Source: a plasmid
Direction: 5' to 3' (one strand)
Sequence record: NZ_CP088248.1
Length of the DNA stretch: 52,774 nucleotides
Below are positions 1,403 to 52,774 of the stretch, piece after piece; the first letter of the stretch is position 1; every line of letters begins with the position of its first letter. The translations under genes were made by a program, and so were the position numbers. The notes under the pieces were generated by a model. That model had not been told where the DNA came from. It made no database searches and worked only from the letters and a program-made list of their open reading frames with translations.

Positions 1403-1543
1403 GCTGCTCACCCGCGGGCCTTGCGAGCGGCGGAGAGCAAAGGAAGGGCGAGACGGTGAGACCATGGGGCTTGCTTCATCATCTCTCGCCGGCGCGCGGG
1501 CTGGACGCGGCCGGATGGCGCGAGGGTGACCAGGGAGCACGGT

Positions 1544-6415: not shown

Positions 6416-6497
6416 TAATTCGATCCAGACCGCTGCCGTATGCCTCGCCGCAGACATGGGATAAATGTTTCCGGTCGATGTTATAGAGCTCGTACCA

Positions 6498-7384: not shown

Positions 7385-7394
7385 GTCTGGGTAT

Positions 7395-9046: not shown

Positions 9047-9162
9047 TGAGTCAGAGCCGAAAAAGGACCCGGCTGAGGGGCTGATCGGCGTCCAATAGGG
9101 ACCCACCCCGCCCCCGTGCATCTCTTGCTCTCTACCGCTCACGGTCAGGGAGCCAGCCGGGG

Positions 9163-10668: not shown

Positions 10669-11399
10669 TGGAGCGACACACCGTCGTCGACCTGATGGTC
10701 AAGCTCAAGCTGCGCGGCATGCGCGCCGCCTACGACGAGATCATCACGCAGGCCGGCAAGCGTGGGCACGCTCCAGAGCGGGTGGTGGGGGATCTGCTGG
10801 CCGCGCAACTGGCCGACGTGGAGAGCCGGGCTACGGCCTACCGCATGGGCAACGCCAAGTTCCCAGTCCTGAAGACGCTGACCGAGTTCGACCTAATCGC
10901 CTCGCCCGTGAACGCGGCGATGGTGCGCGATCTGCACCAGGGCAACTTCCTCACCGACAGCCGGAACGCGGTGCTGATCGGCGGCACGGGCTCGGGCAAG
11001 ACGCATCTGGCCATCGCGATCGGGGCGAACTGCGTGCGGGAGCGCGAGGCACGGGTGCGCTTCTTCAACACGGTCGATCTGGTCAACCAGCTGGAATCGG
11101 AAGCGCGGGCAGGCAAGGCAGGTCGGCTGGCTTCGCAACTCGCACGGATGGACCTCGTGATCCTGGACGAGCTTGGCTACCTGCCGTTCCCGCGCGCCGG
11201 TGGACAGATGCTGTTCCATTTGGTCAGCCGGCTCTACGAGCGGACCTCGGTGATCGTGACGACGAACCTGCCGTTTGGCGAGTGGCCGAGTGTGTTCGGG
11301 GACGCGAAGATGACGACGGCGTTGCTCGACCGGCTGACGCACCACTGCGACATCCTGGAGACCGGCAACGCTAGCTGGCGGCTGAAGACGCGCAGCTGA
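10668..11399 (+). CDS. istB: IS21 family helper ATPase IstB
   Basis: Walker [24 protein letters not shown] Walker B. The start overlaps the istA stop (ATGA). Confidence 0.9.
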
Positions 11400-11931
11400 G
11401 CGTCGAAAAGCCGAGAGCCGGTCCGGCGTCAGGCTGGAGACGAGGCCGATGCCGCTCCGCTGACCCGACCGGCTGCGCGGCATTGGCCTCTGCGTCGGCA
11501 CTCTGCGCGGCGGCTGGTGGGTCCTTTTTGGACGCCGATCCTGGGTCCCTTTTGGACGCCGATTGACAGTCACGTCCTTAGCCATTCGACTCTCCCGGCT
11601 TACGACGCCTATGACAGGCCGGATGAGAAGTGTGCTCAGGCGAAGTCGTTCCCCGGCCCAACCGCGCCCGCTGCATCGCGCTCTGCTGGCTCACTAAGGC
11701 AGGAAGCCATCCCAAACCGGTCGCTCCTGAACGTAACGGAGAGCTGCTGGCCGCTAGTAGGCGGCTAAGCGAATTGGGACGTGATGAACCAGAACACGGC
11801 CGCCACAAGCGCGCCGATACCAGCAAGCACCAAGGCTGCGTGTCGGTCGAAACGTCTTCGTCGCCCACCCGGCATCGGCATGCTTCCCGCGTGATGCGAT
11901 GATGCTCAAGCGTACACGGCCTGGCAACTCC

Positions 11932-25479: not shown

Positions 25480-26475
25480 ATGAAGAAGGCCCTGGTTGTC
25501 GGGATTGACGACTACCATTCCGCACCTTTGCAAGGGTGCGTGAACGATGCATCTTCCGTAGCGCAGCTTCTCGAGCGCAATGGTGACGGTTCCCCGAACT
25601 TCTCCGTCAGGCTGCTCACCAGTGACAAGCTTGAGGTCAATGCACAGGTTCTGCTGCAGGCCATCACTGAGCTTTTCAGCGGCGATGCCGATACGGCTCT
25701 GCTGTTTTTTGCTGGGCATGGGATCATCAACCCGGAAACGAATGCCGGCTATATCGTCAGTCAGGACGGGCGGAAGCCCAGTTGGGGAGTCACGCTATCT
25801 GACATCCTCCATCTGGCCAACCAAGCGTACCCGCGCGTGAAGTCGAGCGTGATCATCCTAGACAGCTGTCAATCCGGCTATGCTGGTGAAATCCAAGGAC
25901 TTGGTTCGGCAGCGAACCAACCGTCGGTGATCGGTAACGGAGTAACAATCCTGACCGCTTCACATCGGGAGGGTACTGCCGCCGAAGAGGATGGGCATGG
26001 ACTCTTCACTAGCATCCTCCTTGATGGTTTGAGCGGTAGCTCGGCTGATGTAATCGGCCGGATTACGCCGGCATCCGTGTACTCCCATATCGATCAGACG
26101 CTTGGGCCTTGGAAACAGCGTCCTGTTTACAAGGCGAACGTGCAAACCTTTGTAACGCTACGCAATGTGGCTCCAAAGATCCCCCACGAGGTGCTGCGAC
26201 GACTGCCAGAGTACTTTCCAGACCCGGCGCACGTGTTTCAACTGGATCCATCCTACGAGCCTGACCGTGAGAATGTGCCGGAGCGCGTTAAGCACATCCC
26301 GGTCGACGAAGATCACAAGCGTATCTTCAAGGAGCTACAGCTTTGTAATCGGCATGGTCTCATCGTGCCCGTCGATGCTGAGCACATGTACTATGCTGCG
26401 ATAGACTCCAAAGGATGTCGTCTTTCTGCGCTTGGTGCCCACTACAGAAAGCTCGCGATCCTTGGGCGTATATAG
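25480..26475 (+). CDS. Caspase-like (peptidase C14/metacaspase family) protein with an uncharacterised C-terminal domain
   Basis: KKALVVGIDDYHSAPLQGCVNDASSVAQLL...LLFFAGHGI...IILDSCQSG gives the His (AGHG) and Cys (DSCQSG) catalytic dyad context of caspase/metacaspase. Confidence 0.8.
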   Translation: MKKALVVGIDDYHSAPLQGCVNDASSVAQLLERNGDGSPNFSVRLLTSDKLEVNAQVLLQAITELFSGDADTALLFFAGHGIINPETNAGYIVSQDGRKPSWGVTLSDILHLANQAYPRVKSSVIILDSCQSGYAGEIQGLGSAANQPSVIGNGVTILTASHREGTAAEEDGHGLFTSILLDGLSGSSADVIGRITPASVYSHIDQTLGPWKQRPVYKANVQTFVTLRNVAPKIPHEVLRRLPEYFPDPAHVFQLDPSYEPDRENVPERVKHIPVDEDHKRIFKELQLCNRHGLIVPVDAEHMYYAAIDSKGCRLSALGAHYRKLAILGRI

Positions 26476-28714: not shown

Positions 28715-28765
28715 ATCCGCTGATGCAGAATTCCGCTTTTACGATCTTCCGGAAATCCTGGTGTG
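28708..28765. repeat. Motif cluster between parG-like and repA: ATCGTAAATCCGCTGATGCAGAATTCCGCTTTTACGATCTTCCGGAAATCC
   Basis: Contains both orientations of the (T)ACGAT core plus TGCAGAA and CCGGAAATCC, all shared with copies at 22341..22547 and 27337..27358. Confidence 0.5.
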
Positions 28766-29995
28766 AGTGATCCCGTCCGTCTCGACCTGATGCCCCTCGA
28801 CGCGTTCGGGGCCCTCGGGCTGCATGAGAAGAACGCCTACCTGCAGGCGCTGGCGGACACGTTCTGCGCCAGGACCGGCCGCGAGACCCTTGTCCTCAAC
28901 AAGGACGCGCTGAGCCGCCTCCGGCGCTTCTACAGCCGGCGCAGCCTGGCTGACCTCAAGGTCGGGCCTGAGCCGACAGACCCGATCGGCATCGCCCTCA
29001 AAGCGCTCGGTGATGCGGTCAAGCTCAACGAGCGCCAACCCGATATCGTCGGCGCGCTGGTCTCTGAGCTGCCGGCGCCGGTGATGCGTGAGGCGCCCGA
29101 CGACGACGCCCAGCTCGCGTTCTTCGTGCCCAACATCTACGACGCGCCGCTCAAGGACGACGTCAACCTGATGGATGTCGCGCCATTCTCGCTCGGCAAG
29201 GCCAAGCGGGAAGGGGTCATCCGTTACGAGCTGAAGGACTGCATCATCACGATCGATGGCAGCGCCTCAGCCGGCCTCGCCACCGTGTTCGACTACGACA
29301 TCTTCCTGCACATGGTTTCGAGCCTCGCCGATGAGGCCAACCGGTACCGCCGAGCGTTGGAGAAAGGACTTCGTATCGATGTACCGGCGCGGGTCTACCG
29401 ACCTAATGCTGCGCACATCCTCAAGTTCTGCCGTCGCTCCAACGGCGGCAAACAGTACAAGGACCTCGAGGCCGCGCTGGACCGACTCAAGGGCACCAGC
29501 GTCAAGGTGGTCAATCTCGGCAACGGCAATCGCCGTGAGATGATCTCGATGTCGCTGATCCAGGACTACCGGACAGTCAGCCGCACCACGACAGGCAACG
29601 TCGACCAGGTCGAAATCGAGATCCCCGATTGGGTCTACGATGGCGTGGTGCGCCAGAAGGGAAACCCGCAGATCCTGACCTTGAACGCCGACTACTTCCT
29701 GATTTCACAGGGGCTTGGCCGCTACCTTTATCGGCTGTCCAAGCGTGCTGCCGGCAAAACCGTCGCCCGCTACGGAATGACCGAAATCCACAAGCGCAGC
29801 GGCTCCAAACAAGCTCTGCCGCAGTTTGCCCATCAGGTGCGCAAATTCGTTGAAAGCACCAAGATCGCGCCGTTGCCCGAATACGACCTAGAGATCATCC
29901 CCGGCAAACGCGAAGACGTGCTTATCATGCGGGCGCGCGGCACCGAAACCTTGCACGCAGGTGCCGTGGTCGCCCCCGAGCTTCCGTTCGACTGA
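28763..29995 (+). CDS. repA: Plasmid replication initiator RepA (Replication initiator protein A/RPA family)
   Basis: FFVPNIYDAPLKDDVNLMDVAPFSLGKAKREGVIRYELKDCIITIDGSASAGLATVFDYDIFLHMVSSL matches the RPA-family N-terminal domain. GTG start. Iteron-containing oriV lies immediately downstream. Confidence 0.8.
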   Translation: MSDPVRLDLMPLDAFGALGLHEKNAYLQALADTFCARTGRETLVLNKDALSRLRRFYSRRSLADLKVGPEPTDPIGIALKALGDAVKLNERQPDIVGALVSELPAPVMREAPDDDAQLAFFVPNIYDAPLKDDVNLMDVAPFSLGKAKREGVIRYELKDCIITIDGSASAGLATVFDYDIFLHMVSSLADEANRYRRALEKGLRIDVPARVYRPNAAHILKFCRRSNGGKQYKDLEAALDRLKGTSVKVVNLGNGNRREMISMSLIQDYRTVSRTTTGNVDQVEIEIPDWVYDGVVRQKGNPQILTLNADYFLISQGLGRYLYRLSKRAAGKTVARYGMTEIHKRSGSKQALPQFAHQVRKFVESTKIAPLPEYDLEIIPGKREDVLIMRARGTETLHAGAVVAPELPFD

Positions 29996-31576: not shown

Positions 31577-31641
31577 GGGTGTTGGCTGAATGGGTGCTGC
31601 GGACACAGGCAGCTGCAAAAGAAGGTCTAGCGTTTTGTAAT

Positions 31642-31684
31642 GGCGCACTTATACATTGGGTATCCAACATAGGTGCGCCCCGGC
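31642..31684 (+). other. Candidate oriT: inverted repeat GGCGCAC...GTGCGCC followed by an RSF1010-like nic-region core ATAGGTGCGCCCC
   Basis: Lies in the divergent intergenic region immediately upstream of the MOBQ relaxase. GGTGCGCC resembles the RSF1010 nic core TAAGTGCGCCCT. Confidence 0.4.
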
Positions 31685-31722
31685 CACAGGCCGTGGGCGT
31701 TGCGGTGGCAACGGAGGGCGCA

Positions 31723-32973
31723 GTGGCATCTTTCCACTTCTCGGCCCAGGTCATCGGAAGGGCGAAGGGGCGGTCGGCAATCGCCGCTGCGGCGTACCGT
31801 GCTGGCGAACGGCTGAGAGACGATCAGACCGGCGCGGAACACGACTTCACTCGCCGTCAGGGCGTCGTGCACACCGAGATCATGCTGCCAGACGGGGCTG
31901 CACCCTGGCTGGCCGACCGACAGAACCTCTGGAACCACGTCCACCAGATCGAGACTCGCCGCGACGCTCAACTCGCCCGCGAGATCAATCTGGCCCTGCC
32001 GCATGAACTCCCAGCCGAGGAGCGGCTGGCCTTGTTGCGTAACTTCATCCGCACCGCGTTCACCGACCGCGGCATGGTCGCGGACTTCGCCATCCACGCA
32101 CCGACCGATAACGATCCGCGCAACCATCACGCCCACGTGATGCTCACCCTGCGGAAGGCCACGCCGACGGGTCTGTACCGGGTCAAAACCCGGGAGTGGA
32201 ACTCGGACGCTCTGCTCAACACCTGGCGTGAAAGCTGGGCGACTTGGCAGAACCACTACCTTGCCCGTGGCCAGCATGAAGCGCGGGTTGATCACCGCAC
32301 ACTTGCGGTTCAGCAGGCGGATGCCCGGAACCGCGGCGACCGACTGGCTGCCGCAAGTCTTGACCGGCCGCCGGAAATCCACGTAGGCCCGCGGGCGCAG
32401 AACGCGGCGAGGCGTGGGGCTAAGCCGAAGAGCCTGCCGCGGACTGATCTGACCGCCCGCCCCCAAGGCGGCGCCTGGCGCTCCGCGAAGGCTGGCGGGA
32501 ACCGGCAGCGCGATATCACCTACCCACAGATCGATCGAGGCTCCCGGGCTGCCTACAACGCGCGCCGCGGCGCCCTTGCCGCGGCCGCAGTCTCCCGCCA
32601 CGTCGAAACCGTCCGGGCGCGCACGGCGCGGCTGAGGCTGATTGAAGGGCGCTACCTCAAGGCACTGCGGGCAACCAAGGAAGGCCTGCGCGACCTGCCG
32701 CGCGAACGTGGAGGCTTCCGGCGCTCGGGTGATCCGGCGCAACGCGCCAATCGCCTGGCCCTCATGTTGAATCGTCGTGCCCATCTACTGCGTCGGCTCC
32801 AGCTGCTGCGGTTGCTGTTGGGGCGGACCGACACGATCCTTAGCGGCCTGTTTCAGGTGCAGGATCGCGCGTTTGGACGAAGCCGCATCCTCACGGATCG
32901 GCTGTTGCCGCGGGCTAACGCGAGCGTGCGCGTGAACCTCCGGCCCGGGCGTAGCCGGGACCTGCTGTGGTAG
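31723..32973 (+). CDS. MobA/MobL family (MOBQ) conjugative relaxase
   Basis: ASFHFSAQVIGRAKGRSAIAAAAYRAGERL (catalytic Tyr motif I), HHAHVMLTLR (3-His motif III). GTG start with GGAGGG RBS. Confidence 0.85.
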   Translation: MASFHFSAQVIGRAKGRSAIAAAAYRAGERLRDDQTGAEHDFTRRQGVVHTEIMLPDGAAPWLADRQNLWNHVHQIETRRDAQLAREINLALPHELPAEERLALLRNFIRTAFTDRGMVADFAIHAPTDNDPRNHHAHVMLTLRKATPTGLYRVKTREWNSDALLNTWRESWATWQNHYLARGQHEARVDHRTLAVQQADARNRGDRLAAASLDRPPEIHVGPRAQNAARRGAKPKSLPRTDLTARPQGGAWRSAKAGGNRQRDITYPQIDRGSRAAYNARRGALAAAAVSRHVETVRARTARLRLIEGRYLKALRATKEGLRDLPRERGGFRRSGDPAQRANRLALMLNRRAHLLRRLQLLRLLLGRTDTILSGLFQVQDRAFGRSRILTDRLLPRANASVRVNLRPGRSRDLLW

Positions 32974-34522
32974 GTGCGTCCGGCATGTCGTCGTCATCAC
33001 CGAACCACCTGCTGGTGGGCAGAGTCACCACCACACCTTCAGCCTGCCGCCACGCATCGTAGAGGCCACGCCAGCGCCACTCCTTGTAGTAGCGGACCTT
33101 GGTGCCCTTGATCGGCGCACCGACCTGGTCGGGCATCATAATGATGCACTGGTTCGGGTTCATGAACCGCACCTCAGCAGCATCCAGCAGATCCCGGCCG
33201 GTTTCCGACTGGCCGTCCTGATGCTGCGCCCGGACCAGGCTCAAATTGCCGGCGGCAGTGCCGTAGGAGCTCGACATCACCGTCTGACGGCCGATGCCTT
33301 CGGCTACCTCACGGGCCGTCCGCGTGTCGGACACCCCGAACATCACCTGGGCGCCGGATCCGGCGATGAACGTGGTCGCGGTCTCCTGACCATAGAGCGC
33401 GCGCAGCTGGCCGAGGTCCTGAAAAATGATGACCGTCTGGCAGTAAGCCCTGAGCATGCCCATACCGGTGGCCAGAATGTCGAGGCGACCGAGGGCCTTG
33501 GCCTCATCGATCAGCAGCATCGGCTTGTGTGCCGGCGGCGGGCGGTCCTTGCTGCGCATCAGCGCGGCGACGGCACAGCCCATCATCACCCGCAGGAACG
33601 GCGTGAAGATATCGATCTTGTCGTCCGGCACCATCAGGTAGACGGACATCCCTTCCCGGCTGAGATCCTCCATCCGGAAGTCCGAGGCCTGGGTGATCCA
33701 TCCCCCGACCCGGTCCTTGCTCCAGAACGCCATGCCCTTGGCCGTGTTGTTCAGCACCGACTGGGTTTCCGGGTGTTCCAGGCCGTTGAGCGTGATGCGG
33801 CCCTGCTCGGCAATCGAAGGAATCCGGCTGCTGGCCATCTCCTCGAACAGCCCGCGCAGGGTCTCGCCCTCGGCGGCGATCAACTCGCGCACTAATGAGA
33901 GCGTCTGCTGCTCCTCGGGGTACGCGTGCAGGACGTGGCGGATCACCGCCGTGAGGACGTTCTTGGCGCTGGTGTCCCAGTGCCCCTCCCGGCTTTCCGG
34001 GATGACCAGAAAGCTGGCCAGCTGCGCCGTGTCGGTGTCCTCGTGGAAGGTGCCCTTGCGGATCATGGAGAGCGGGTTGAAGAAGTCGCTCTCCTCGGGA
34101 TGGATCGCGTCCAGGCGCCAGACCGGGCCCAGGGTTGAGCGATGCCGCTGCGTCACTGCGAAGTTTTCACCCTTCGGGTCAGTGACGATCACCGAACCCT
34201 TGTGGTCCAGGAGATTGGGCACGACCACGCCGACGCCCTTCCCCTTGCCCTGAGGAGCTACGCACAGCACCGCACCGTCGCCCTTGAAGCGGATGAACTG
34301 GCCGTAGGCCATGCCGACGATCAGCCCCTTGCTGCCGCCTAAGGCGTCGCCGCGCACCAGGTCATAGAAGCCGGCCCAGCGTGCCGACCCATGCGACGTC
34401 GGCCGTGACCGCAAGGCCTTCCGGCCCTGGCGGAACCCGTGCTTGAGCAGGAAAGCCAGCAGCCAAGCGGCCCACCTGAGCACGCGGAACACAACACGGA
34501 CGAGCAGCCAAAGCACGCGCAT
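32915..34522 (-). CDS. traG: Type IV coupling protein TraG/VirD4 family
   Basis: Walker A APQGKGKGVGVVVPN, TraG/VirD4 core (VIVTDPKGE, MLLIDEA Walker B). Confidence 0.85.
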   Translation of the reverse strand: MRVLWLLVRVVFRVLRWAAWLLAFLLKHGFRQGRKALRSRPTSHGSARWAGFYDLVRGDALGGSKGLIVGMAYGQFIRFKGDGAVLCVAPQGKGKGVGVVVPNLLDHKGSVIVTDPKGENFAVTQRHRSTLGPVWRLDAIHPEESDFFNPLSMIRKGTFHEDTDTAQLASFLVIPESREGHWDTSAKNVLTAVIRHVLHAYPEEQQTLSLVRELIAAEGETLRGLFEEMASSRIPSIAEQGRITLNGLEHPETQSVLNNTAKGMAFWSKDRVGGWITQASDFRMEDLSREGMSVYLMVPDDKIDIFTPFLRVMMGCAVAALMRSKDRPPPAHKPMLLIDEAKALGRLDILATGMGMLRAYCQTVIIFQDLGQLRALYGQETATTFIAGSGAQVMFGVSDTRTAREVAEGIGRQTVMSSSYGTAAGNLSLVRAQHQDGQSETGRDLLDAAEVRFMNPNQCIIMMPDQVGAPIKGTKVRYYKEWRWRGLYDAWRQAEGVVVTLPTSRWFGDDDDMPDAPTTAGPGYARAGGSRARSR

Positions 34523-36471: not shown

Positions 36472-36598
36472 CGCGACGGTCGCCTCGCGGATGTGTAGGG
36501 CGGTGACAAAACCATCCACTGGAGCGTCGGCTTTGTGCTGATGCGGGCGGTGTAAAAGCCGGCCAGTGGAGAGGCTTCTCTTTCGAGAGGAGCCGAGG

Positions 36599-38098
36599 AT
36601 GTTCGTCGTGGAAGTCTACGCAGCCGTTCGGCAGTTCGTGTTCATCGAGGGCCAGTCCCGGCGTGAGGCGGCTCGGGTCTTCGGGTTGAGCCGAGAGACG
36701 ATCGCCAAGATGTGTCGGTTCTCGTTGCCGCCGGGCTACACACGCTCGAAGCCGGTCGAGAAGCCGAAGCTCGGGCCTCTTCTGCCAGTGATCGCGGCGA
36801 TCCTTGAGGCGGACCGGACTGCACCGCTCAAGCAACGCCATACGGCCAAGCGGATCTTCGAGCGCCTACGCGACGAGCACGGCTATGCCGGTGGCTATAC
36901 CGTGGTGAAGGACCACGTACGGATCTGCCGAGCACGGGGGCAGGAGACTTTCGTGCCGCTCGCCCACCCGCCCGGCCATGCCCAGGTCGATTTTGGCGAG
37001 GCGGTCGCCACCATCGCTGGCGTGCGCCGCAAGATCCATTTCTTCTGCATGGATCTGCCGCACTCCGACGCCTGCTTCGTGAAGGCGTATCCGCGGGAGA
37101 CCACCGAAGCTTTTCTCGACGGGCATGTCGCCGCCTTCGCCTTCTTCGGCGGCGTGCCTCTGTCGATCCTGTACGACAACACCAAAATCGCAGTGGCCAA
37201 GATCTGCGGCGACGGACAGCGTGAGCGTACGCGCGCCTTCACCGAGTTGGTGAGCCACTGCCTGTTCCGGGATCGCTTCGGCCGTCCGGGCAGGGGCAAC
37301 GACAAGGGCAAGGTCGAGGGGCTGGTCAAGTTCGCCCGGTCCCACTTCATGACCCCGGCTCCGGAGGCGGCCTCGTTCGAGGCGCTGAACGCTGACCTGG
37401 AGCGCCGCTGCCGAGCTCGGCAGAACGAGTGCGCCGGGCGGCATCCCGAGAGCATCGGAACGCGGCTCATGGCCGATCGAGTGGTTCTGCGAGCCCTGCC
37501 GGCGGTGCCGCTGGAGCCGTGCGAGAAGAGGGCCGGGCGCGTCTCGTCGACCGCGCTGGTGCGCTATCGCGGCAACGACTACTCGGTGCCGACCACCTAC
37601 GGCTTCCGGGACGTGCTGGTGAAGGGCTTCGTCGAGGAAGTCGTGATCCTGTGTGCGGGGGTCGAGATCGCCCGGCACCCGCGCAGCTACGGCAGCGGCG
37701 TTTTCGTCGCCGAACCTCTGCACTACCTCGCGCTGATCGAGACCAAGCCGAACGCCCTCGACCAAGCCGCGGCACTCCAGGGCTGGGATCTGCCCGAGGC
37801 GTTCCAGCACCTGCGCCACCTTCTGGAGGCGCGCATGGGCAACCGCGGCAAGCGCGAGTTCATCCAGGTGCTGCGCCTGATGGAGGCGATGCCGAAGGAC
37901 CTCGTGGCCTGGGCCGTCACCGAGGCGATCCGGCTCGGGGCGATTGGCTTCGATGCGGTCAAGTTGATCGCGCTGGCCCGTCTCGAACGGCGGCCGCCTC
38001 GGCTCGACTTGTCGGCCTACCCGCATCTGCCCCGGCCTGCGGTGCGCGCGACGATGGCCGCCGACTACACGGTGCTGGTGCCGGAGGTGGCGGCATGA
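36599..38098 (+). CDS. istA: IS21 family transposase IstA
   Basis: HTH (VYAAVRQFVFIEGQSRREAARVFGLSRETIAKM), DDE core. Confidence 0.9.
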   Translation: MFVVEVYAAVRQFVFIEGQSRREAARVFGLSRETIAKMCRFSLPPGYTRSKPVEKPKLGPLLPVIAAILEADRTAPLKQRHTAKRIFERLRDEHGYAGGYTVVKDHVRICRARGQETFVPLAHPPGHAQVDFGEAVATIAGVRRKIHFFCMDLPHSDACFVKAYPRETTEAFLDGHVAAFAFFGGVPLSILYDNTKIAVAKICGDGQRERTRAFTELVSHCLFRDRFGRPGRGNDKGKVEGLVKFARSHFMTPAPEAASFEALNADLERRCRARQNECAGRHPESIGTRLMADRVVLRALPAVPLEPCEKRAGRVSSTALVRYRGNDYSVPTTYGFRDVLVKGFVEEVVILCAGVEIARHPRSYGSGVFVAEPLHYLALIETKPNALDQAAALQGWDLPEAFQHLRHLLEARMGNRGKREFIQVLRLMEAMPKDLVAWAVTEAIRLGAIGFDAVKLIALARLERRPPRLDLSAYPHLPRPAVRATMAADYTVLVPEVAA

Positions 38099-38937
38099 GC
38101 GTGAGCGGCGATGAGACGACACCGGGCGTCCTGCTCGCCCATCACCTCAAGCAGTTGAAGTTGCCGACGGTCCTGCGCGAGTACGACAAGGTCGCCCGGG
38201 ACTGCGCCCGGAGCGGCCTCGACCACCCCCGCTATCTGCTGCGGCTGGTTGAGCTGGAACTGATCGACCGCGAACGGCGCATGGTCGAGCGCCGGATCCG
38301 GGCGGCACGCTTCCCGGCGGTGAAGAGCCTCGACACCTTCGACTTCGCCGCCATCCCGAGCCTGAACAAGATGCTCGTGCTGGAGCTGGCGCGCTGCGGC
38401 TACGTCCTCGGTCGGGAGAACGTCATCGCGCTCGGCAACTCCGGCACCGGCAAGACGCACATCGCCCTGGCTCTCGGACTGGCAGCCTGCCAGAAGGGCT
38501 TCTCGGTCACGTTCACCACGGCGGCCTCGCTGGTCAACCAGCTCATGGAGGCGCGTGACGAGCGCCGCCTGCTCCGGCTTCAGAGGGAGCTGGCCGCGGT
38601 GAAGTTGCTGATTGTCGATGAACTCGGCTACGTGCCGCTGTCGCCGACGGGGGCCGAGCTTTTGTTCGAGGTCCTGTCCCAGCGCTACGAGCGCGGCTCG
38701 ACGGTGGTGACCTCGAACCTTCCGTTCGAGGACTGGACCTCGGTCCTGGGCTCGGAGCGGCTGACCGGTGCGCTGCTGGATCGGCTGACCCATCACGTCA
38801 GCATCCTGAGCCTGAACGGAGACAGCTACCGCCTCAGATCCTCCCGCAGCCGGCGGGGCCGCACAGACAGGGCGGAGCAAAACCAGGCCACCCTTGATGA
38901 CCCTGATCCCGCGACGGGCGAGATCCGGCCAGCCTGA
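38095..38937 (+). CDS. istB: IS21 family helper ATPase IstB
   Basis: Walker A GNSGTGKTHIALALG, DELGYVPL. ATGA overlap with istA. Confidence 0.9.
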   Translation: MSVSGDETTPGVLLAHHLKQLKLPTVLREYDKVARDCARSGLDHPRYLLRLVELELIDRERRMVERRIRAARFPAVKSLDTFDFAAIPSLNKMLVLELARCGYVLGRENVIALGNSGTGKTHIALALGLAACQKGFSVTFTTAASLVNQLMEARDERRLLRLQRELAAVKLLIVDELGYVPLSPTGAELLFEVLSQRYERGSTVVTSNLPFEDWTSVLGSERLTGALLDRLTHHVSILSLNGDSYRLRSSRSRRGRTDRAEQNQATLDDPDPATGEIRPA

Positions 38938-39082
38938 CCTCACGATCCGCGACAAACGATGAAGAGGCCCGATCGGGCCCCTTCATCGTTCAGGCTGTCC
39001 GCAGTCCGTGGCCTGGTTTTACTCCGCCACGGCGGCCTAAAATTGGTCCGCCCTTTACAGGTTCTGGGCGACCGGTGAGCTG

Positions 39083-40936
39083 ATGCCTCTCAAAGCCGAG
39101 AACGGCACCGTGCAGGGCTTTCTCAAGATCCTGCGCGATCGCACCCAACAGCGCGTCGAAGCAGCAGAGCGTAACGCCAGCGAGCTGCGCTTCCGCTCGC
39201 TCGTCGAGGTCAGCCCTCAGGTGGTCTGGTTCGGTGATGCCGCCGGCAACATCACCTACTGCAACCCGATCTGGTACGAGTTCACGGGGCTACCGTCAGG
39301 TGACACAAACTGGGCCAGCGTGATCCACCCAGACCACCAGGAACGTGTGCTGGAGGTCTGGAGGCATGCGGTTGAGACCGAGGGACCCTACGAGGTCGAG
39401 ATCCCGTTCCGCCGAGCCAGCGATGGCCAGTACCGCTGGTTCCTGGCGCGCGGCAAACCCATAAGCGATGCTGCCGGCGTACCGGATTGCTGGATCGGCA
39501 TCGCCATCGACATCCACGACCGCAAGGAGGCTGAGATTGCCCTCCGCAGCGCGCAGGAGCAGTTGCGCCTTGCCGTCGAGGCGACCGAGACGGGCGTGTT
39601 CGACTATGACCTCGTCTCGGACGAGCTGAAGTGGGACAACCGCATCCGTTCGTTCTACGGCCTAGCGCCGGACGCTCCCGTCAACCTGGCCGTGCACCTG
39701 GCTCGCGTGCACCCGGACGACCATGCCAAGGCGGATGAAGCGGTGCGCGCCGCGATCGATCCGGCCGGCGACGGCATCTACGACATCACCTATCGCACGG
39801 TGGCCCCGGAGGACGGGACCGAGCGCTGGGTGTCTGCCAAGGGTCAGACCCTCTTTGAGGGCGGACGACCGGTGCGTCTCATCGGCACCGCGCGCGATGT
39901 CACCGGGAGCCGGCGCGCGGAGCAGGTTCTGCGCGAAACCGAGGAGCGCTACCGCCTCGCCTCGCGCGCCACCAACGATGCGATCTGGGACTGGAACCTC
40001 GCCACCAACCACGTGCTCTGGAACGAGGCGCTGCAGGTTGCCCACGGCTACGCGCCTGATGCGGTCGAGCCGACCGGTGACTGGTGGATCAGCCACATCC
40101 ATCCCGACGACCGCGCCCGCATCGATGCCTCCATCCATGCTGTTATCGATGGGACGGGTACTGTCTGGAGCGACGAGTACCGCTTCCTGCGGGCCGACGG
40201 CTCCTATGCCGACATCCTCGACCGCGGTTCCGTCATCCGCGACGCGCAGGGAAAAGCGACGCGCATGATTGGGGCGATGCTGGACATCACCGAGCGCAAG
40301 CAGGCGGAAGAGCAGCAGCGCCTGCTGACGGGTGAGCTGCAGCACCGGGTCAAGAACACGCTGGCGATGGTGCAGGCGATTGCCAGTCAGACGCTGCGAG
40401 GGGCGGCGGACATCGACGAAGCGCGTGAGGCTTTTGCCGCCCGCCTAATCTCACTCGGCCGCGCGCATGACATTCTCACGCAGGCCAGCTGGAAGGCTGC
40501 CCCGATCATGGAGGTGGTCCAGGGGGCCCTGAGTGTGCATGCCCAGGCCGGACCTGCACGGATCCGGGTTAGCGGCCCGAACGTGCTGCTCGGTGCGAAA
40601 TCAGCCCTCTCACTGGCTCTGGCTCTGCACGAGCTGGCCACCAACGCGGCCAAGTACGGCGCTCTTTCGAACGAAAGCGGGATCGTGGAGCTGCGCTGGC
40701 ACATTGTGCACGAGGGCGAAGCGCCCCGGTTCTGCCTTACCTGGTCCGAGCAGGGTGGGCCGCCCATTCTCGCCCAGCCTGCGCGGCGCGGGTTCGGCTC
40801 ACGCCTGATCGAGCGCAGCTTCGCCGCCGAGGTCGGTGGTGAGGTTAGGCAGACCTATGCACCGACCGGGCTAATCTGCCGCCTGGAGGCGCCCCTTGCC
40901 TCGATGCAGGAGCAGCGTAGCGAAATCGCAGCATAG
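39083..40936 (+). CDS. Multi-PAS HWE-family sensor histidine kinase, apparently 5'-truncated by the adjacent IS21 insertion
   Basis: Three PAS-like segments, then LLTGELQHRVKNTLAMVQAI (HisKA_2 H-box) and HELATNAAKYGALS (HWE_HK). The ORF begins with the tail of a PAS domain (GTVQGFLKILRDRT) only 24 nt from the IS21 end. Confidence 0.8.
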   Translation: MPLKAENGTVQGFLKILRDRTQQRVEAAERNASELRFRSLVEVSPQVVWFGDAAGNITYCNPIWYEFTGLPSGDTNWASVIHPDHQERVLEVWRHAVETEGPYEVEIPFRRASDGQYRWFLARGKPISDAAGVPDCWIGIAIDIHDRKEAEIALRSAQEQLRLAVEATETGVFDYDLVSDELKWDNRIRSFYGLAPDAPVNLAVHLARVHPDDHAKADEAVRAAIDPAGDGIYDITYRTVAPEDGTERWVSAKGQTLFEGGRPVRLIGTARDVTGSRRAEQVLRETEERYRLASRATNDAIWDWNLATNHVLWNEALQVAHGYAPDAVEPTGDWWISHIHPDDRARIDASIHAVIDGTGTVWSDEYRFLRADGSYADILDRGSVIRDAQGKATRMIGAMLDITERKQAEEQQRLLTGELQHRVKNTLAMVQAIASQTLRGAADIDEAREAFAARLISLGRAHDILTQASWKAAPIMEVVQGALSVHAQAGPARIRVSGPNVLLGAKSALSLALALHELATNAAKYGALSNESGIVELRWHIVHEGEAPRFCLTWSEQGGPPILAQPARRGFGSRLIERSFAAEVGGEVRQTYAPTGLICRLEAPLASMQEQRSEIAA

Positions 40937-41004: not shown

Positions 41005-41385
41005 ATGGAATTGCATACTGCGTCGCCTCCCGCTGTCGCCTTGGTTGCCGAGGATGAATTTATTCTACGTATGGAGGCGGCCGACACCCTGGCCGATGCC
41101 GGGTTCAAGGTCTTGGAGGTCGCCACCGCTGACGCAGCGCTGCGCTACCTCCAGGAGAAGGACGGTGTCGACTTGCTGTTCACCGATGTGAACATGCCGG
41201 GTGACCTCAATGGTTTCGACTTGGCCCGTGAAGTTGCTGCCCGCTGGCCAGAGATCCTGATTGTTGTCTGCTCGGGTGCGACCAAGCCAGGACCCGGGGA
41301 CCTACCTGCCAAAGCCCGCTTCATCGACAAACCCTACTCCTCAGGGCTGGTCGAGCAGATCCTGCGCGAGCTGCGGGCCGCATAA
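41005..41385 (+). CDS. Single-domain response regulator (CheY-like receiver)
   Basis: VALVAEDEFILRMEAADTLADAGF...LLFTDVNMPG...KPY matches the receiver consensus (DD...D...K). Confidence 0.85.
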   Translation: MELHTASPPAVALVAEDEFILRMEAADTLADAGFKVLEVATADAALRYLQEKDGVDLLFTDVNMPGDLNGFDLAREVAARWPEILIVVCSGATKPGPGDLPAKARFIDKPYSSGLVEQILRELRAA

Positions 41386-46350: not shown

Positions 46351-46935
46351 TCACTGAAGCGGTACGCGAGCGCGAACGCGGATCCCGTCCGGTTCGAAGG
46401 CAACCTCGACCTCAGCCTTTGTCTGTGCGGCCAGGACCTTGTTCAGGAGGCGGTGTCCGAACCCCTCCCGGGTAGGATGCCCGACCGGAGGGCCGTCATG
46501 CTCGTCCCAGTTCCATCGCAGGCACTGTCCGCTGGAGCCGTCCTCAATCCACCAAGTGACCTCGACCCGACCTTTAGGATCGGCGAGAGCGCCGTGTTGC
46601 AGGGCGTTGGTCGTCAACTCGTGCAGAGCCATGCTTACCGGCACGGCAAGGTTGGACGGCAGCATGACCCTGGGACCTTCCAAGGTAATCCGCCCATGAT
46701 CGTTGTACGGATCGAGTTCCGACCGCAGCAATCCCTCAAACGAAGCCGCTTGTGAGAGATCCTCCGTGATCAGCGCGTGAGTCCGCGCCAGCGAGCTGAT
46801 CCGAGCGGTCAATGCACGAGTGAACTCTGAGATCGAGAGGGAAGAGCGAACGGTGGCGTTCATCACCGCCTGCACGGTCGCGAGCGTATTTTTGACGCGA
46901 TGGTGCAACTCGCGCACCATGAGCTTCTGGCGCTC
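46351..46935 (-). pseudogene. C-terminal (HisKA_2 + HWE_HK) fragment of a PAS-HWE histidine kinase gene split by IS21 copy 3
   Basis: ...ERQKLMVRELHHRVKNTLATV...HELTTNALQHGAL. The reading frame runs without a stop to the IS end at 46935. Confidence 0.8.
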
Positions 46936-47052
46936 TGTCAGCGGGCGTTGAATACTCCCTGATTGTGGGCATCGAAAATTCCCTGGTCGGTGCCCTGGCC
47001 CGTAGGGTCGCGACGCCCCGCGCCCTCTCGGGCTTTTCCATCCTCAGCCACC

Positions 47053-48354
47053 ATGCCTGCCGATACCGATCGGCTGGGAGCGACGAGGATGGTTCTGCTG
47101 GGAGAACTCGTCATGATCTTGGACCTGCACCGACAGGGCCTGTCCGTCTCCGCCATCGCCCGCCGGACCGGCCGCGATCCGAAGACGATCCGCAAGTACA
47201 TCGAGCGCGGCCTCGAGCCGCCGGCCTACGGCCCGCGTCAGCCCGGCCGCCCGAGCAAGCTCGCGCCCTATCTCGATTATCTGCGCGAGCGGATCACCGC
47301 CTTCCCCGACCTGAGTGCCGTGCGCCTGACCCGCGAGTTGCGCGAGCGCGGCTACACCGGTGCCTACACCGCGGTGAAGCGGTTCGCCGCCGCGATCCGG
47401 CCGCCCGAGGCCAAGCCCTACGAGGTCCGCTTCGAGACCCCGGCCGGCCAGCAGGCGCAGGTCGACTTCGCCCGCTTCCTCGTCACCTTCACGGATGCGC
47501 CGGACACGACCTGCATCGTCTGGCTGTTCTCGCTGGTGCTCGGCCATTCCCGGCACATCGAGGCGCGCTTCGTCCTGCATCAGGACCTGCAAACGCTGCT
47601 GCGCTGTCACATGCAGGCCTTCACCGCGATCGGCGGCGTGCCGATCGAGATCCTCTACGATCGCATGAAGACGGCGGTCACCGGCGAGGATGCGGACGGC
47701 CACATCGTCTACAACCGATCCCTGCTGGCACTCGCCCAGCACTACGGATTCCTGCCGCGCGCCTGCCGCCCGTACCGGGCCAAGACCAAGGGGAAGGTCG
47801 AGCGACCGTTCTCCTACATCCGCCAGGACTTCTTCCTCGCACGTTCCTTCCGCGACCTCGACGACCTCAACCGCCAGCTTCGGAGCTGGCTCGATACCGT
47901 CGCCAACGTCCGCTTGCACGGCACCACGCAGCGGATCGTCTCGGAAGCCTTCGCCGCCGAGCGGCCCGAGTTGCAGCCCTTGCCGGCTCTGCCCTTCGAC
48001 GCTCTGCTCACGCTGGAGCGGCGCGTCAGCCACGATGGCCTCGTCTCGATCGGTGGCAACTATTACAGCGTACCGGATCGGACCCGGCGCGTCGTCGAGG
48101 TGCATCAGTTGCCCGACACGATCCGCATCCTCGATGGTGGCCGGCTCGTCGCGAGCCATCCGATCCTGGAGGGACGACGGCAGTACCGCATCGACCCCGA
48201 CCATCGGCAAGGCACGGCCGCTCGGGCCATGCGCCGCGGCCATCCCGACGGTCTGCCGATCGGCCGCCATGGCGATCACGTCGCCCGGCGCTCGCTGGCT
48301 GTCTACCAGGCAGTCGGCGAACGGCTCGCCGGCGGGATCGGAGGCCAGCGATGA
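47053..48354 (+). CDS. istA: IS21 family transposase IstA
   Basis: HTH (ILDLHRQGLSVSAIARRTGRDPKTIRKYI), DDE core. Confidence 0.9.
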   Translation: MPADTDRLGATRMVLLGELVMILDLHRQGLSVSAIARRTGRDPKTIRKYIERGLEPPAYGPRQPGRPSKLAPYLDYLRERITAFPDLSAVRLTRELRERGYTGAYTAVKRFAAAIRPPEAKPYEVRFETPAGQQAQVDFARFLVTFTDAPDTTCIVWLFSLVLGHSRHIEARFVLHQDLQTLLRCHMQAFTAIGGVPIEILYDRMKTAVTGEDADGHIVYNRSLLALAQHYGFLPRACRPYRAKTKGKVERPFSYIRQDFFLARSFRDLDDLNRQLRSWLDTVANVRLHGTTQRIVSEAFAAERPELQPLPALPFDALLTLERRVSHDGLVSIGGNYYSVPDRTRRVVEVHQLPDTIRILDGGRLVASHPILEGRRQYRIDPDHRQGTAARAMRRGHPDGLPIGRHGDHVARRSLAVYQAVGERLAGGIGGQR

Positions 48355-49217
48355 GCCGCGCCGCCCCCTGTGTCGCCACGACCCTCGACAGCATCAAGCG
48401 CAGCTTGGTCGGCCTGCGCATGCCGCGCGCCCTGGAGGTGCTCGACGCGACGGTCCGGCGCATCGAGCAGGGCGAGATCGACGGCTTGGCCGCCCTCGAC
48501 GTGATCCTGACCGAGGAACTGACGCTGCGCGAGAACCGCCGCGTGAAGACCGCCCTGCTGGTCGCGCGCCTGACCACGATCAAGACGCTGTCCGGGTTCG
48601 ACTTTGCCTTCCAGCCCTCGCTCGACCGCGAGCGCGTCCTGGCGCTGGCGGAACTGACCTTCATCGACCGGGCCGAGGTCGTCCATCTGCTCGGACCACC
48701 CGGCACCGGCAAGAGCCATCTGGCGATCGCGCTCGCCGTCGAGGCGGTCAAGGCCGGGCGCAGCGTCGTGTTCTCGACGCTGGCCGACCTCGTGACCTCG
48801 CTGGCCAAGGCCGAGCGCGACGGCTCCCTGCGCGAGCGCATCCGCTATCTCTGCCGGGCCTCGCTGCTGGTCGTGGACGAGATCGGCTACCTCCCCGTCG
48901 TCCCCGGTGGCGGCAACCTGTTCTTCCAACTCGTCAACGCGCGCTACGAGCGCGGGGCGATGATCCTGACTTCGAACCGCGGCTTCGCCGAGTGGGGCGA
49001 AGTGTTCGGTGATCCGGTCGTGGCGACAGCCCTGCTCGACCGACTCCTCCACCATGCCGTGGTGATCCAGATCGAGGGGGCGAGCTACCGCCTGCGCCAG
49101 CACGCCGACCTCGTCCCCGAGCACGTCCGCTCCAAGGCCCTGATCGTTCCGCCGCCCGCACCCAGGCGTCGCGGTCGTCCACCCGGAAAGGCTGCCTCCG
49201 ATCACACGGCCGGCTGA
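48351..49217 (+). CDS. istB: IS21 family helper ATPase IstB
   Basis: Walker A GPPGTGKSHLAIALA, DEIGYLPV. ATGA overlap with istA. Confidence 0.9.
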   Translation: MSRAAPCVATTLDSIKRSLVGLRMPRALEVLDATVRRIEQGEIDGLAALDVILTEELTLRENRRVKTALLVARLTTIKTLSGFDFAFQPSLDRERVLALAELTFIDRAEVVHLLGPPGTGKSHLAIALAVEAVKAGRSVVFSTLADLVTSLAKAERDGSLRERIRYLCRASLLVVDEIGYLPVVPGGGNLFFQLVNARYERGAMILTSNRGFAEWGEVFGDPVVATALLDRLLHHAVVIQIEGASYRLRQHADLVPEHVRSKALIVPPPAPRRRGRPPGKAASDHTAG

Positions 49218-49294
49218 TCACCGATCCGCACCGAACCCGCCGGCCAGGGAATTTTGAAAGCCCACAATTGCGGAGACTTCGGTGCCCGTTGACA

Positions 49295-49725
49295 CGCTCC
49301 TCGTAAGCATGACGCTCTGTTACGTCACGCTGCGCCGAGACCCAGTGCGTGATGGAGCCGTTCTTCTCACGCACTGGCGTGATGAGCCACTCTACCACGT
49401 AGGTTGATCCGTCCTTGCGGTAGTTGATGGTCTCGCCTTGGAAGGGGTTACCAGCCCCAAGAGCCATGCGCATCCGGTGCAGGACCCCACCGTCGGTCTC
49501 CGGCCCCTGCAGCAGCCGCGGTGATCGCCCGAGGACCTCGTGCGCTTCGTAGCCGGTCATGCGGGTGAAGGCCGAATTGGTGTACTCGATGCGTGGTCCG
49601 GGCTCATCGAGATCGGCCGAGGTGATGAGGATGGCTTCCCCGGCCGCTTCGACGGCAGCAAGAAGCACATCCAGATCGGGACGAACCTGCGCCGCTCCGT
49701 GATCCTCGCGCAAGTCCTCCTCCAT
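49295..49725 (-). pseudogene. N-terminal PAS-domain fragment of the same histidine kinase gene (other side of IS21 copy 3)
   Basis: ILITSADLDEPGPRIEYTNSAFTRMTGYEAHEVLGRSPRLLQG...INYRKDGSTYVVEWLITPVREKNGSITHWVSAQRDVTERHAYEER is a PAS fold ending exactly at the TSD. Confidence 0.8.
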
Positions 49726-50970: not shown

Positions 50971-52774
50971 TCAGACCCGTCCCACCAGTTGCGCCGCTCT
51001 CTGGGCTTCGAGCCGGTTCACTTCCGCGGCCGGGATATAGAAGCTCGTGTGGTAGTTGAACGTGTGCCTGATCGAGACCGCAATCAGGGCAATGAGCGAC
51101 AGGGCGGCGAGCCACCACACGTACCAGACCAAGGCAAACCCAAGCACAGTGCTCAGAGCGGCCAGTGTCATGCCCATCGCCGTGTTGCAGGGCATGTGAA
51201 TGGGTCTGAAGCCTCCTGCTGGCCGCTCATGGCCGCGCTTCTTCATGTCCCACCAGGCGTCGAGATCGTGCACCACGGGTGTGAACGCGAAGTTGTAGGG
51301 GGGTGGGGGTGAGGAGGTGGACCACTCAAGCGTCCGTCCACCCCAGGGATCACCGGTAAGGTCACGCAGCTGCTCGCGTCGCAGGATGCTCACGAGAAGC
51401 TGCACGACAAAGGCCAGGATGCCAGCCATGATGATGAAGGCGCCGAACGCCGCAACCATCAGGTAGGGCTGCACCGACGGATCGTCGAAATGCTGGGTCC
51501 GACGCGTCTCGCCCATTAGACCGAGGGCATAGATCGGCGTGAACACGACCCAGAAGCCAACCAGCCAGCACCAGAAGCTGACCTTTCCCCAGAAGGGGTC
51601 GAGACGGAAGCCGAAGGCTTTCGGGAACCAGTACTGCACGCCGGCGAGCAGCCCGAACACGACGCCGCCGATGATGACGTTGTGGAAATGCGCAACCAGG
51701 AACAGGCTGTTGTGGAGGACAAAGTCGGCCGGCGGCACGGCAAGCAGCACGCCGGTCAGGCCACCCAGCACGAAGGTCGGGATGAAACCCATGACCCAAA
51801 TGAAGGGGCCCTCGAAGCGGATCTTGCCCCGGTACATGGTGAACAGCCAGTTGAACACCTTGGCCCCGGTCGGGATCGAGATGATCATGGTCGTGATGCC
51901 GAAGAAGGCGTTGACGTTGGCGCCGGCACCCATCGTGAAGAAGTGGTGGAGCCAGGTCAGCCATGACACGAGCGCGATGACAGCGGTGGCGTAGACCATC
52001 GACGTATAGCCAAACAGCCGCTTTCCGCAGAACGTCGAGACGATCTCCGAGTAGATGCCGAAGGCAGGTAGGACGAGTACGTAAACCTCCGGATGCCCCC
52101 AGATCCAGATGAGGTTCATGTACAGCATCGAGTTGCCGCCGTAATCGTTCGTGAAGAAGTGTGTCCCCACGTAACGATCACAGGCCAGAAGAGCCAACGT
52201 GGCGGTCAGAACCGGAAAAATCGTGACGATGATTGCATTGCTAGCGAGCGTGGTCCAGCAGAACACCGGCAGCTTCATCATAGTCATGCCGGGCGCGCGC
52301 ATCTTCACGATGGTCGCGATCAAATTGATCGCAGACAGCGTCGTGCCGACGCCGGCGATCTGTAGGCTCCAGATGTAGTAATCGACACCGACGCCCGGGC
52401 TGTAGGCTGCTCCGGAGAGCGGCGGGTAGGCAAGCCAACCCGTACGGGCAAACTCGCCCACAAACAGCGACAGCATCGTCAGGATGGCGCCGCCTGCCGT
52501 CATCCAGAAGCTGAAGTTGTTGAGAAATGGAAAGGCCACATCGCGCGCTCCGATCTGGAGCGGCATGATGTAATTCATCACCCCGGTCACGAATGGCATC
52601 GCCATGAAGAAGATCATGATCGTGCCGTGGGCGGTGAAGATCTGATCGTAGTGATGCGGTGGCAGGTAACCCTGTGCCTCTCCGACCGAGAGAGCCTTTT
52701 GTGTGACCATCATGATTGCGTCGGCAAAGCCGCGCAGCAGCATTACGATGGCGAGGATGATGTACATGATGCCG
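50971..52774 (-). CDS. cyoB: Cytochrome bo3 ubiquinol oxidase subunit I, C-terminal 601 codons. Continues from 200..1 across the window junction.
   Basis: Heme-copper oxidase subunit I with CyoB-specific stretches ([29 protein letters not shown]). The reading frame enters from the right edge with ...GIMYII. Confidence 0.9.

Follow-up and report, generated by a model that had tools for sequence, protein, structure and literature searches.

The locus raises the question of how a histidine kinase gene came to lie in two pieces on either side of an insertion sequence, and of what this has done to the kinase. The stretch analysed here (the window) covers the whole of a mobilisable plasmid from Methylorubrum sp. 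B1-46, 52,774 bp long and recorded as a closed circle with contiguous ends. The original prediction held that an IS21-family element precisely splits a single PAS-HWE histidine kinase gene. Both fragments were found on the minus strand with the ends it had given, the first ending ...RDVTERHAYEE(R) and the second beginning (E)RQKLMVRELHHRVKNTL... (Table 1). Excision in silico of the IS with one copy of the duplicated CGCTC restored, as had been claimed, an intact frame of 1,011 nt (336 codons) that runs through the join without a frameshift. Residues 1-144 mapped to positions 49725-49294 at 100% identity in tblastn, and the nucleotides of the 3' fragment were 100% identical to those of intact alleles. 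Pfam matches to PAS_9, PAS, PAS_4 and PAS_3 covered residues 40-140 of the 5' fragment. The 3' fragment, whose H-box region is the dimerisation-phosphotransfer region, matched HWE_HK (PF07536) over residues 151-230 at 81 bits (cutoff 22.8). The insertion point falls at codons 143/144 (E143 and the CG of R144); the predicted phospho-acceptor, His154, comes 10 codons further on. The IS genes are antisense to the kinase gene.

Table 1. Features of the interrupted kinase locus (window positions).
Feature	Position	Strand	Basis or remark
5' kinase fragment, codons 1-143 + 2 nt, LOV-like PAS sensor domain	49295..49725	-	tblastn, Pfam
3' kinase fragment, codons 143-336 + stop, H-box/HWE_HK and ATP-binding domain	46351..46935	-	PF07536
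Chimeric 263-aa ORF	48934..49725	-	ORF list; 144 native residues + 119-residue tail read from the IS
189-aa ORF from internal Met148	46351..46920	-	GenBank 'sensor histidine kinase', UGB28600.1 / WP_231347159.1
ISMex13, IS21-family, complete, 2,359 bp	46936..49294	+	matches to AM1 / DM1 copies
istA, DDE transposase, 421 aa from the AM1-annotated start	47089..48354	+	NCBIfam NF033546, Pfam domains
istB, AAA+ helper ATPase, 288 aa	48351..49217	+	NF038214, PF01695
IRL, begins TGTCAGCGGGC	46936..46990	+	pairs with reverse complement of right end, ~50 nt
IRR, ends ...CCCGTTGACA	49240..49294	+	pairs with left end
Target-site duplication CGCTC, left copy	46931..46935	.	single copy in empty sites
Target-site duplication CGCTC, right copy	49295..49299	.	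direct repeat of left copy

The tail of the chimeric ORF is antisense to istB and reads as Arg/Gly/Ser/Pro-rich nonsense; the exact 263-aa sequence was not found in a collection of 15 billion proteins. The 189-aa ORF on the far side of the element is best read as a fragment of the 336-aa gene and not as a gene by itself. It keeps the H-box and the catalytic domain together with an in-frame ATG, and low-level expression of a sensor-less kinase from it might occur.

A search with the reconstructed ORF recovered the uninterrupted allele: the reconstructed protein was residue-for-residue identical to P0123, which is encoded without interruption on 22 public contigs, including named Methylorubrum genomes. 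The two fragments thus belong to one gene on all of these contigs and not to different genes. Another candidate for the exact allele, P0001, was set aside; although scored as "100%", it differs by V25A, arising from one nucleotide at window position 49652. The cyo genes lay directly upstream of the P0123 gene in all eight of the places shown, and the order cyoABCD-kinase-MCP-GGDEF was complete on the four long P0123 contigs. At the DNA level, nine contigs (L001 and L011-L018) matched both flanks of the insertion at 99.9-100% and carried a single CGCTC, the left- and right-flank alignments overlapping by exactly 5 bp. The predicted 5-bp duplication was thereby borne out, and CGCTC is not a chance repeat, because nine independent contigs carry it once at the empty site.

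The homologue search found 3,218 matches, among them orthologues at 66-88% identity; the 120 listed were mostly of 320-345 aa with the same domain architecture. An 85% orthologue from Methylobacterium sp. R2-1 (L002) was continuous across the site at the DNA level. That the empty sites are products of precise excision was considered and rejected, since orthologues in other species share the ~336-aa length and the architecture, and the R2-1 gene is continuous. It is therefore very unlikely, judging from these alignments, that the IS-bearing state was ancestral to the uninterrupted alleles. Megablast of the reconstructed locus against the PLSDB plasmids gave no match, so the plasmid lineage is absent from PLSDB. 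When a chromosomal paralogue in B1-46 was sought by cluster look-ups, the strain was not among the listed members; paralogues at 69-79% identity were present on chromosome-sized contigs in other Methylorubrum genomes. Solely from these paralogues, we infer that the B1-46 kinase may be redundant.

The interrupting element is ISMex13, an IS21-family element already named in Methylorubrum and Methylobacterium. Two copies in M. extorquens AM1, on p1META1 (NC_012807) and on the megaplasmid (NC_012811), are annotated 'IS21-like element ISMex13' and were 99.9% identical to the B1-46 copy (2 of 2,359 nt differ). They share its 2,359-bp length, istA/istB organisation, termini and 5-bp target duplication; beyond the 2 nt, the insertion site alone differs, being inside the kinase gene in B1-46. 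A plasmid copy in Methylobacterium sp. DM1 was 100% identical, but is interrupted by another element. Public records give the exact IstB sequence the name ISMex13 IstB, and it occurs on 93 contigs. A literature search for "ISMex13" or "Methylorubrum B1-46" found no papers.

IstA scored 319 bits against the IS21 family transposase model NF033546 (cutoff 160) and carried HTH (HTH_38/HTH_29), rve and Mu-transpos_C_2 domains. IstB scored 266 bits against NF038214, IS21-like helper ATPase IstB (cutoff 200), and 251 bits against PF01695. The istB gene lies immediately downstream on the same strand, its start overlapping the istA stop by 4 nt (ATGA, 48351-48354). An alternative in-frame ATG for istA is present at 47053. 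No second identical copy of ISMex13 with which to set the boundaries was found in the window, and the boundaries were therefore taken from the AM1 copies, where full-length matches in differing flanking contexts fix the exact ends. So delimited, the element starts TGTCAGCGGGC and ends GCCCGTTGACA, with the 5'-TG ... CA-3' termini of the IS21 family and imperfect terminal inverted repeats of ~50 bp; the left and right repeats were 76% identical over 55 nt in blastn. IS21-family elements duplicate 4-8 bp of target. The duplication is 5 bp here and likewise 5 bp at other ISMex13 copies (GCAGG, CCTGC), both AM1 copies included. The element had been called the third copy of an IS21; the window does contain three IS21-family elements, of which it is the third, but they are not repeats of one IS, their IstA proteins being 30-31% and their IstB proteins 37-39% identical.

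We conclude, with a probability of about 0.92, that ISMex13 interrupted a kinase gene of 336 codons by transposing into it at codon 143/144, leaving an allele that is most likely null and a change that was probably near-neutral. Insertion produced the CGCTC duplication by a 5-bp staggered cut, as the element does elsewhere. The description of the event as recent and clean proved apt: it is judged recent because neither half shows a nucleotide difference from intact alleles in other strains and the copies of the IS found elsewhere are all but identical to this one. Some 2.36 kb of DNA now lie between the sensor domain on one side and the H-box (His154) and ATP-binding domain on the other. From the native promoter, the PAS domain would be made fused to the 119-residue nonsense tail and nothing else, while the kinase core would have lost its promoter, ribosome-binding context and sensor. 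Since the core is left without these, the allele is most likely null. As to the predicted inactivation of a sensor kinase, the gene is physically split, and loss of function is what its sequence most likely implies. We assume that the insertion was neutral, and it most likely was so or nearly so.

Other accounts of the locus were also weighed. Loss may itself have been selected, if inactivating a Cys-less LOV-like HWE kinase is advantageous (for example, through less stress-response input in culture or in a given niche) and lesions hence recur. In M. suomiense DSM 14458, a 98%-identical replicon carries the same gene independently destroyed by an IS3-family element with an 884-bp deletion, its breakpoint 15 bp from the ISMex13 site and lacking a target duplication. 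A related gene in M. terrae bears a nonsense change, CAG>TAG, 11 codons upstream of the point where ISMex13 inserted, and a second HWE kinase on the B1-46 plasmid is likewise truncated by an IS. These three lesions, however, stand against thousands of homologues, and identical intact alleles are far commoner. Moreover, the plasmid as a whole is heavily loaded with IS (four elements), and in relatives hits extend to neighbouring genes, an IS3-like element lying inside the response-regulator gene on L011 and L014. Selected loss is accordingly unlikely. Whether the linker might be a hot spot for insertion was also considered; proximity within 15 bp has a ~3% probability by coincidence in a 1-kb gene, yet the hot spot is unsupported. 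It was rejected because the M. suomiense lesion is a deletion without target duplication, which leaves its original insertion point uncertain, and because the M. terrae lesion is a point nonsense mutation involving no IS. Distinctly improbable is a broader proposal, that the LOV-derived HWE kinases of Methylobacterium and Methylorubrum in which Cys has become Pro sense a cue other than blue light, that repeated loss of the gene on this plasmid lineage reflects an advantage or a linker hot spot, and that the 189-aa core is perhaps deregulated.

The split might instead be tolerated, the PAS fragment, the 189-aa core or both being expressed separately so that signalling is rewired and not abolished. 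The PAS fragment keeps the native promoter and start codon, but it carries the nonsense tail. The 189-aa fragment, a GenBank CDS, has an in-frame start at Met148, six codons ahead of His154, but it lacks most of the linker and the first helix preceding the H-box. Both ends of the element show the outward -35-like hexamers of the IS21 family (TTGACA at the terminus of IRR, and CTGACA). A consensus scan, which is weak for a high-GC alphaproteobacterium, found no sigma-70-like promoter reading out of either IS end, and the flanks held no -10 box at usable spacing from the terminal hexamers. Only 16-18 nt separate the IS end from the start codon of the 189-aa ORF, which places this ATG within the spacer of any such promoter; transcripts from a hybrid promoter built on the terminal -35 would begin downstream of the ATG. 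IS-borne outward and hybrid promoters were thus set aside, none being detected at the IS ends, and rewired signalling is most improbable. Hardly credible is an error of assembly, with the IS misplaced and the kinase gene intact in B1-46: ISMex13 is multi-copy in these bacteria and repeats are well known to mislead assemblers, but a misjoin would not yield a perfect 5-bp target duplication of the element's usual length. Both junctions are also base-exact in a record that closes as a circle.

The reconstructed protein is predicted to be a cytoplasmic sensor kinase in which a linker helix joins a LOV-like PAS domain to an HWE-type kinase core. The H-box of this family, a conserved His within E-L-x-H-R-x-K-N, is present as RELHHRVKN (residues 150-158), with H154, R155 and N158 invariant in alignment A1. 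The N-box, with its conserved His, and the W-x-E motif of the ATP-binding domain, H247-E248-L249...N252 and W285-D-E287...G290-P-P, were invariant in the same alignment. At the loci examined, no response-regulator gene adjoined this kinase gene. The best match of known structure was 6PH4 (E=4.7e-59), and 4R3A aligned over residues 33-335; the top PDB matches were LOV kinases or LOV domains, consistent with a LOV-clade PAS domain N-terminal to an HWE/HisKA_2 core. Brucella abortus LOV-HK (PDB 6PH4, 5EPV) has the same order of LOV-type PAS, linker helix and HWE core, as does Erythrobacter litoralis EL346 (PDB 4R3A), of 352 aa as compared with 336 aa here.

LOV-HK and EL346 are LOV-HWE/HisKA_2 blue-light histidine kinases whose photoactive Cys lies in a GRNCRFLQ/GXNCRFLQ motif. 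In the B1-46 protein, GRSPRLLQ stands in place of GRNCRFLQ, with Pro69 at the position of the adduct-forming Cys, and at least 100 of the 120 homologues listed as closest likewise have Pro for Cys. In the structure-match alignment, two flavin-contacting Asn positions appeared to be occupied by Ser and Val, and the score against the NCBIfam blue-light kinase equivalog NF052306 (231.7 bits) fell below its cutoff of 450. Because of the Cys to Pro change, the substituted Asn contacts and the low equivalog score, light sensing by this kinase is doubtful; whether its PAS domain would bind flavin is uncertain. The automatic family name "blue-light-activated histidine kinase" in Methylobacterium and Methylorubrum is probably wrong, the photoactive cysteine being absent. 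Two papers (PMC4438053, PMC11580852) describe alphaproteobacterial LOV-HWE kinases as feeding the general stress response.

The plasmid is rich in IS elements and bears several lesions caused by them, the ISMex13 insertion being one. Plasmids of M. extorquens are dense in IS elements (Vuilleumier et al., 2009; PMC2680597), and the Methylobacterium plasmids and genomic islands of that report share with the B1-46 plasmid a high IS density, genes interrupted or truncated by IS, and IS-mediated deletions. The present case differs from those in strain and gene, and in that an empty site at 100% identity allows reconstruction to the base. It is an ordinary IS knockout of a known kind and raises no new biological question alone. 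Its main value lies in annotation and bookkeeping: the 189-aa "sensor histidine kinase" of the GenBank record for the B1-46 plasmid ought to be labelled a piece of a pseudogene disrupted by an IS, and one further target site is added for ISMex13. The locus also makes a clean teaching case of IS21-family transposition, with filled site, empty site and target duplication all at 100% identity.

The reconstructed join had further been likened to that of an intact paralogue at 39083. That 617-aa ORF is not intact but a 5'-truncated remnant of an 869-aa GAF-PAS-HWE kinase, and it ends at another IS21-family element. The likeness itself holds, the PAS-linker-H-box arrangement being similar in the two proteins, with 38% identity across the join.

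On the minus strand of the plasmid, a PAS-HWE histidine kinase gene is split by the IS21-family element ISMex13. Read on the plus strand, the left junction runs ...TTCTGG CGCTC and then TGTCAGCGGGCG... (CGCTC at 46931-46935, element from 46936), and the right junction ...CCCGTTGACA and then CGCTC CTCGTAAG... (element end at 49294, CGCTC at 49295-49299). The termini are imperfect inverted repeats of ~50 nt (TGTCAGCGGGC... and ...GCCCGTTGACA), and 2,359 bp separate the two CGCTC copies. Deletion of the element and one CGCTC in silico yielded an open frame (1,011 nt, 336 codons) that encodes a PAS domain at residues 40-140 and an HWE_HK domain at residues 151-230 (81 bits). The duplicated pentamer corresponds to gene nt 427-431 (E143 and the CG of R144), 10 codons ahead of His154 in the H-box ELHHRVKN. 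Junctions and open frame agree with the original prediction of an IS21 insertion with a 5-bp target-site duplication (TSD), excision of which restores the kinase frame.

A protein search with the reconstruction found 3,218 homologues, of which those listed (120) share its architecture and are mostly 320-345 aa long. A 336-aa protein (P0123) from records of M. aminovorans and other Methylorubrum (e.g. GJE67649.1, GMA80075.1) equals the reconstruction at every residue, and another homologue (P0001) differs by one residue (V25A), owing to a single nucleotide at window position 49652. The uninterrupted P0123 gene is found on 22 contigs, with cyo genes directly upstream in all eight places shown; the order cyoABCD, kinase, MCP, GGDEF, DUF892 is complete on the four long ones. 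In nine contigs with an empty site (L001 and L011-L018), the DNA is 99.9-100% identical to the window on both sides, and the two flank alignments overlap by exactly 5 bp in each, so that a single CGCTC stands where the window has CGCTC-IS-CGCTC. There are no mismatches across the kinase gene in L013 and L016. An orthologue in Methylobacterium sp. R2-1 (85%) is likewise unbroken across the insertion site. The uninterrupted allele sought in relatives with the reconstructed frame thus exists. Because intact alleles match the whole reconstruction, the fragments do not come from different genes and their join carries no frameshift, and the reading as an insertional inactivation therefore stands. 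These comparisons indicate that the uninterrupted gene is the ancestral state and that the insertion is recent, since gene halves, TSD and IS are all free of accumulated substitutions. Overall, the analysis confirms the observation and supports its interpretation; two side claims, on the copy number of the element and on an intact paralogue, had to be corrected.

The istA and istB genes of ISMex13 overlap and lie on the plus strand. Its full-length sequence recurs without any difference on a Methylobacterium sp. DM1 plasmid (CP029174.1 190473-194234), where an IS110-family element in turn interrupts that copy. Two M. extorquens AM1 copies, for which RefSeq gives the name 'IS21-like element ISMex13', each show 2 differences in 2,359 positions. 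The AM1 copies lie in unrelated flanks with 5-bp duplications, GCAGG and CCTGC, showing that the ends and the TSD length are properties of the element. These two duplications are reverse complements of each other; the pair may hint at a target preference, one not common to the CGCTC site. ISMex13 had been called copy 3 of an IS21 element. It is the third IS21-family member in the window and not a third copy of the same element, as elements #1 and #2 share with it only 30-31% (IstA) and 37-39% (IstB) protein identity.

From the arrangement of the frames, the native promoter would now yield only the PAS domain with a 119-residue tail from the istB antisense strand. The kinase core fragment lies upstream of istA and divergent from it. 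In IS21-type elements, terminal -35-like hexamers can make a junction promoter where two ends abut, and the ISMex13 termini carry such hexamers facing outward, TTGACA on the right (49289-49294) and CTGACA on the left (46936-46941). No sigma-70-like promoter was detected at either end in a scan whose evidential weight is low given the high GC content of the genome, and at 15-19 nt spacing from the hexamers the flanks offer at best 2/6 matches to a -10 box. The ATG of the 189-aa fragment is just 16-18 nt from the IS end, within any such promoter spacer. Together, these features suggest that the allele is most likely null. ISMex13 is a known element that has acted here in a known way on a kinase whose family is also known; the main practical value of the case is annotation correction, in that the 189-aa 'sensor histidine kinase' of GenBank and RefSeq ought to be marked as one piece of a pseudogene disrupted by an IS.

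The same kinase gene has been independently destroyed in M. suomiense DSM 14458 (NZ_BPRE01000025.1), which is 98% identical on both sides. There, an IS3-family element of ~1,240 bp (6412-7651; inverted repeats TGGCCTGCTGCCGGTTT; NF033516 at 436 bits) borders directly on window positions 49315 and 46066, and no TSD is present. Native DNA is missing over 884 bp, which takes away the gene from about codon 139 onward (~197 codons) and a further 285 bp beyond its end; the remaining product carries the annotation 'PAS domain-containing protein' (149 aa, P0124). A distance of 15 bp separates the breakpoint from the ISMex13 insertion point, a closeness that we treat as coincidence. In M. terrae (CP029553.1, 4572-5576), a related PAS-HWE kinase gene is broken into annotated 127-aa and 191-aa genes where the CAG codon for the conserved Gln of SAQRDVT has become a TAG stop; this may reflect a genuine pseudogene or an error in sequencing. 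Together with the truncation of the second HWE kinase at 39083, these lesions suggest that the gene family is dispensable and decays sporadically, rather than that the site is a hot spot, and selection for loss of the gene is a conceivable alternative.

The best solved-structure matches of the reconstructed kinase were Brucella LOV-HK (6PH4, E=4.7e-59), EL346 (4R3A), which aligns over residues 33-335, and CagFbFP (6RHF), all LOV histidine kinases or LOV domains. Many homologues are named 'blue-light-activated histidine kinase' in the databases. However, the LOV signature GXNCRFLQ is replaced by GR(S/T)PR(L/F)LQ at residues 66-73 (window about 49507-49530, minus strand): photoreceptors have GRNCRFLQ and the reconstruction GRSPRLLQ, with Pro at the position of the adduct-forming Cys. 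Among the 120 closest Methylobacterium/Methylorubrum homologues, at least 100 read likewise, with Pro at this position. Two positions held by flavin-contacting Asn in LOV photoreceptors align to Ser and Val, and the NCBIfam blue-light kinase equivalog scored 232 bits, under its cutoff of 450. For these reasons we call it a PAS-HWE kinase that is LOV-like and Cys-less. Published work connects LOV-HK, LovK and Pak kinases with the alphaproteobacterial general stress response (PMC4438053, PMC5898713, PMC11580852), and by likeness to them the reconstructed kinase may feed this response. No response-regulator gene adjoins the kinase gene.

The second HWE kinase, at 39083, had been taken for an intact paralogue. 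Its 617-aa ORF (39083-40936, plus strand) starts at an internal Met and is what remains, after 5' truncation, of a GAF-PAS-PAS-PAS-HWE kinase of 869 aa. Contig L013 matches the window at 100% from 46935 down to 39060 and then runs on into the 869-aa kinase; identity ends right after the ...CCCTTTACA terminus (...TTTACA) of element #2. The 245 codons lost from the 5' end do not occur anywhere else in the window, and element #2 is flanked by no matching TSD (GGATG versus GGTTC), so a deletion or rearrangement accompanied this element. The resemblance of the PAS-linker-H-box joins holds (DITERKQAEEQQRLLTGELQHRVKN versus DVTERHAYEERQKLMVRELHHRVKN; 38% identity over 251 residues).

Features of the plasmid and of the disrupted kinase locus
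Feature	Position	Strand	Remarks
cyoA	224-1540	-	part of cyoABCD
ISL3-family transposase	7439-8992	-	517 aa
IS21-family element #1	about 9050-11570	+	IstA 9163-10668, IstB 10626-11399; repeated terminal motifs 9083-9107, 11516-11563
RepA-type initiator	28763-29995		
MobA/MobL relaxase	31579-32973		
TraG/VirD4 coupling protein	32915-34522		
Resolvase			on plasmid
IS21-family element #2	about 36492-39059		
3' kinase fragment	46935-46351	-	(E)RQKLMVRELHHRVKNTL... up to stop codon
189-aa ORF	46920-46351	-	from internal Met148; UGB28600.1 / WP_231347159.1, 'sensor histidine kinase (plasmid) [Methylorubrum sp. B1-46]'
IstA (ISMex13)	47089-48354	+	NCBIfam NF033546 'IS21 family transposase', 319 bits (cutoff 160); also Pfam
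IstB (ISMex13)	48351-49217	+	NF038214 'IS21-like element helper ATPase IstB', 266 bits (cutoff 200); also Pfam
Chimeric 263-aa ORF	49725-48934	-	PAS fragment + 119 residues antisense to istB
PAS-domain fragment	49725-49295	-	ends ...RDVTERHAYEE(R)
cyoB	50971..52774 then 1..~220	-	cut by record origin

The cyoB frame runs from 52774 into 1, and L004 (the M. suomiense contig) and L011-L017 join these positions; the window, with contiguous ends, is thus the whole circular plasmid. This mobilisable plasmid carries all of cyoABCD, the operon for a cytochrome bo3-type ubiquinol oxidase. An IS load of the kind seen here is known from M. extorquens plasmids (PMC2680597). In two M. aminovorans-group contigs, L011 (14115-15307) and L014, an IS3-like element of ~1.2 kb (370-aa transposase) lies at the point matching window about 41248-41258, without counterpart in the window or L013; owing to it, the single-domain response-regulator gene beside the GAF-HWE kinase encodes 92 aa instead of 126. 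A gene for a caspase-like (Peptidase_C14/CHAT) protein (25480-26475, plus strand) adjoins ORFs without a Pfam match.
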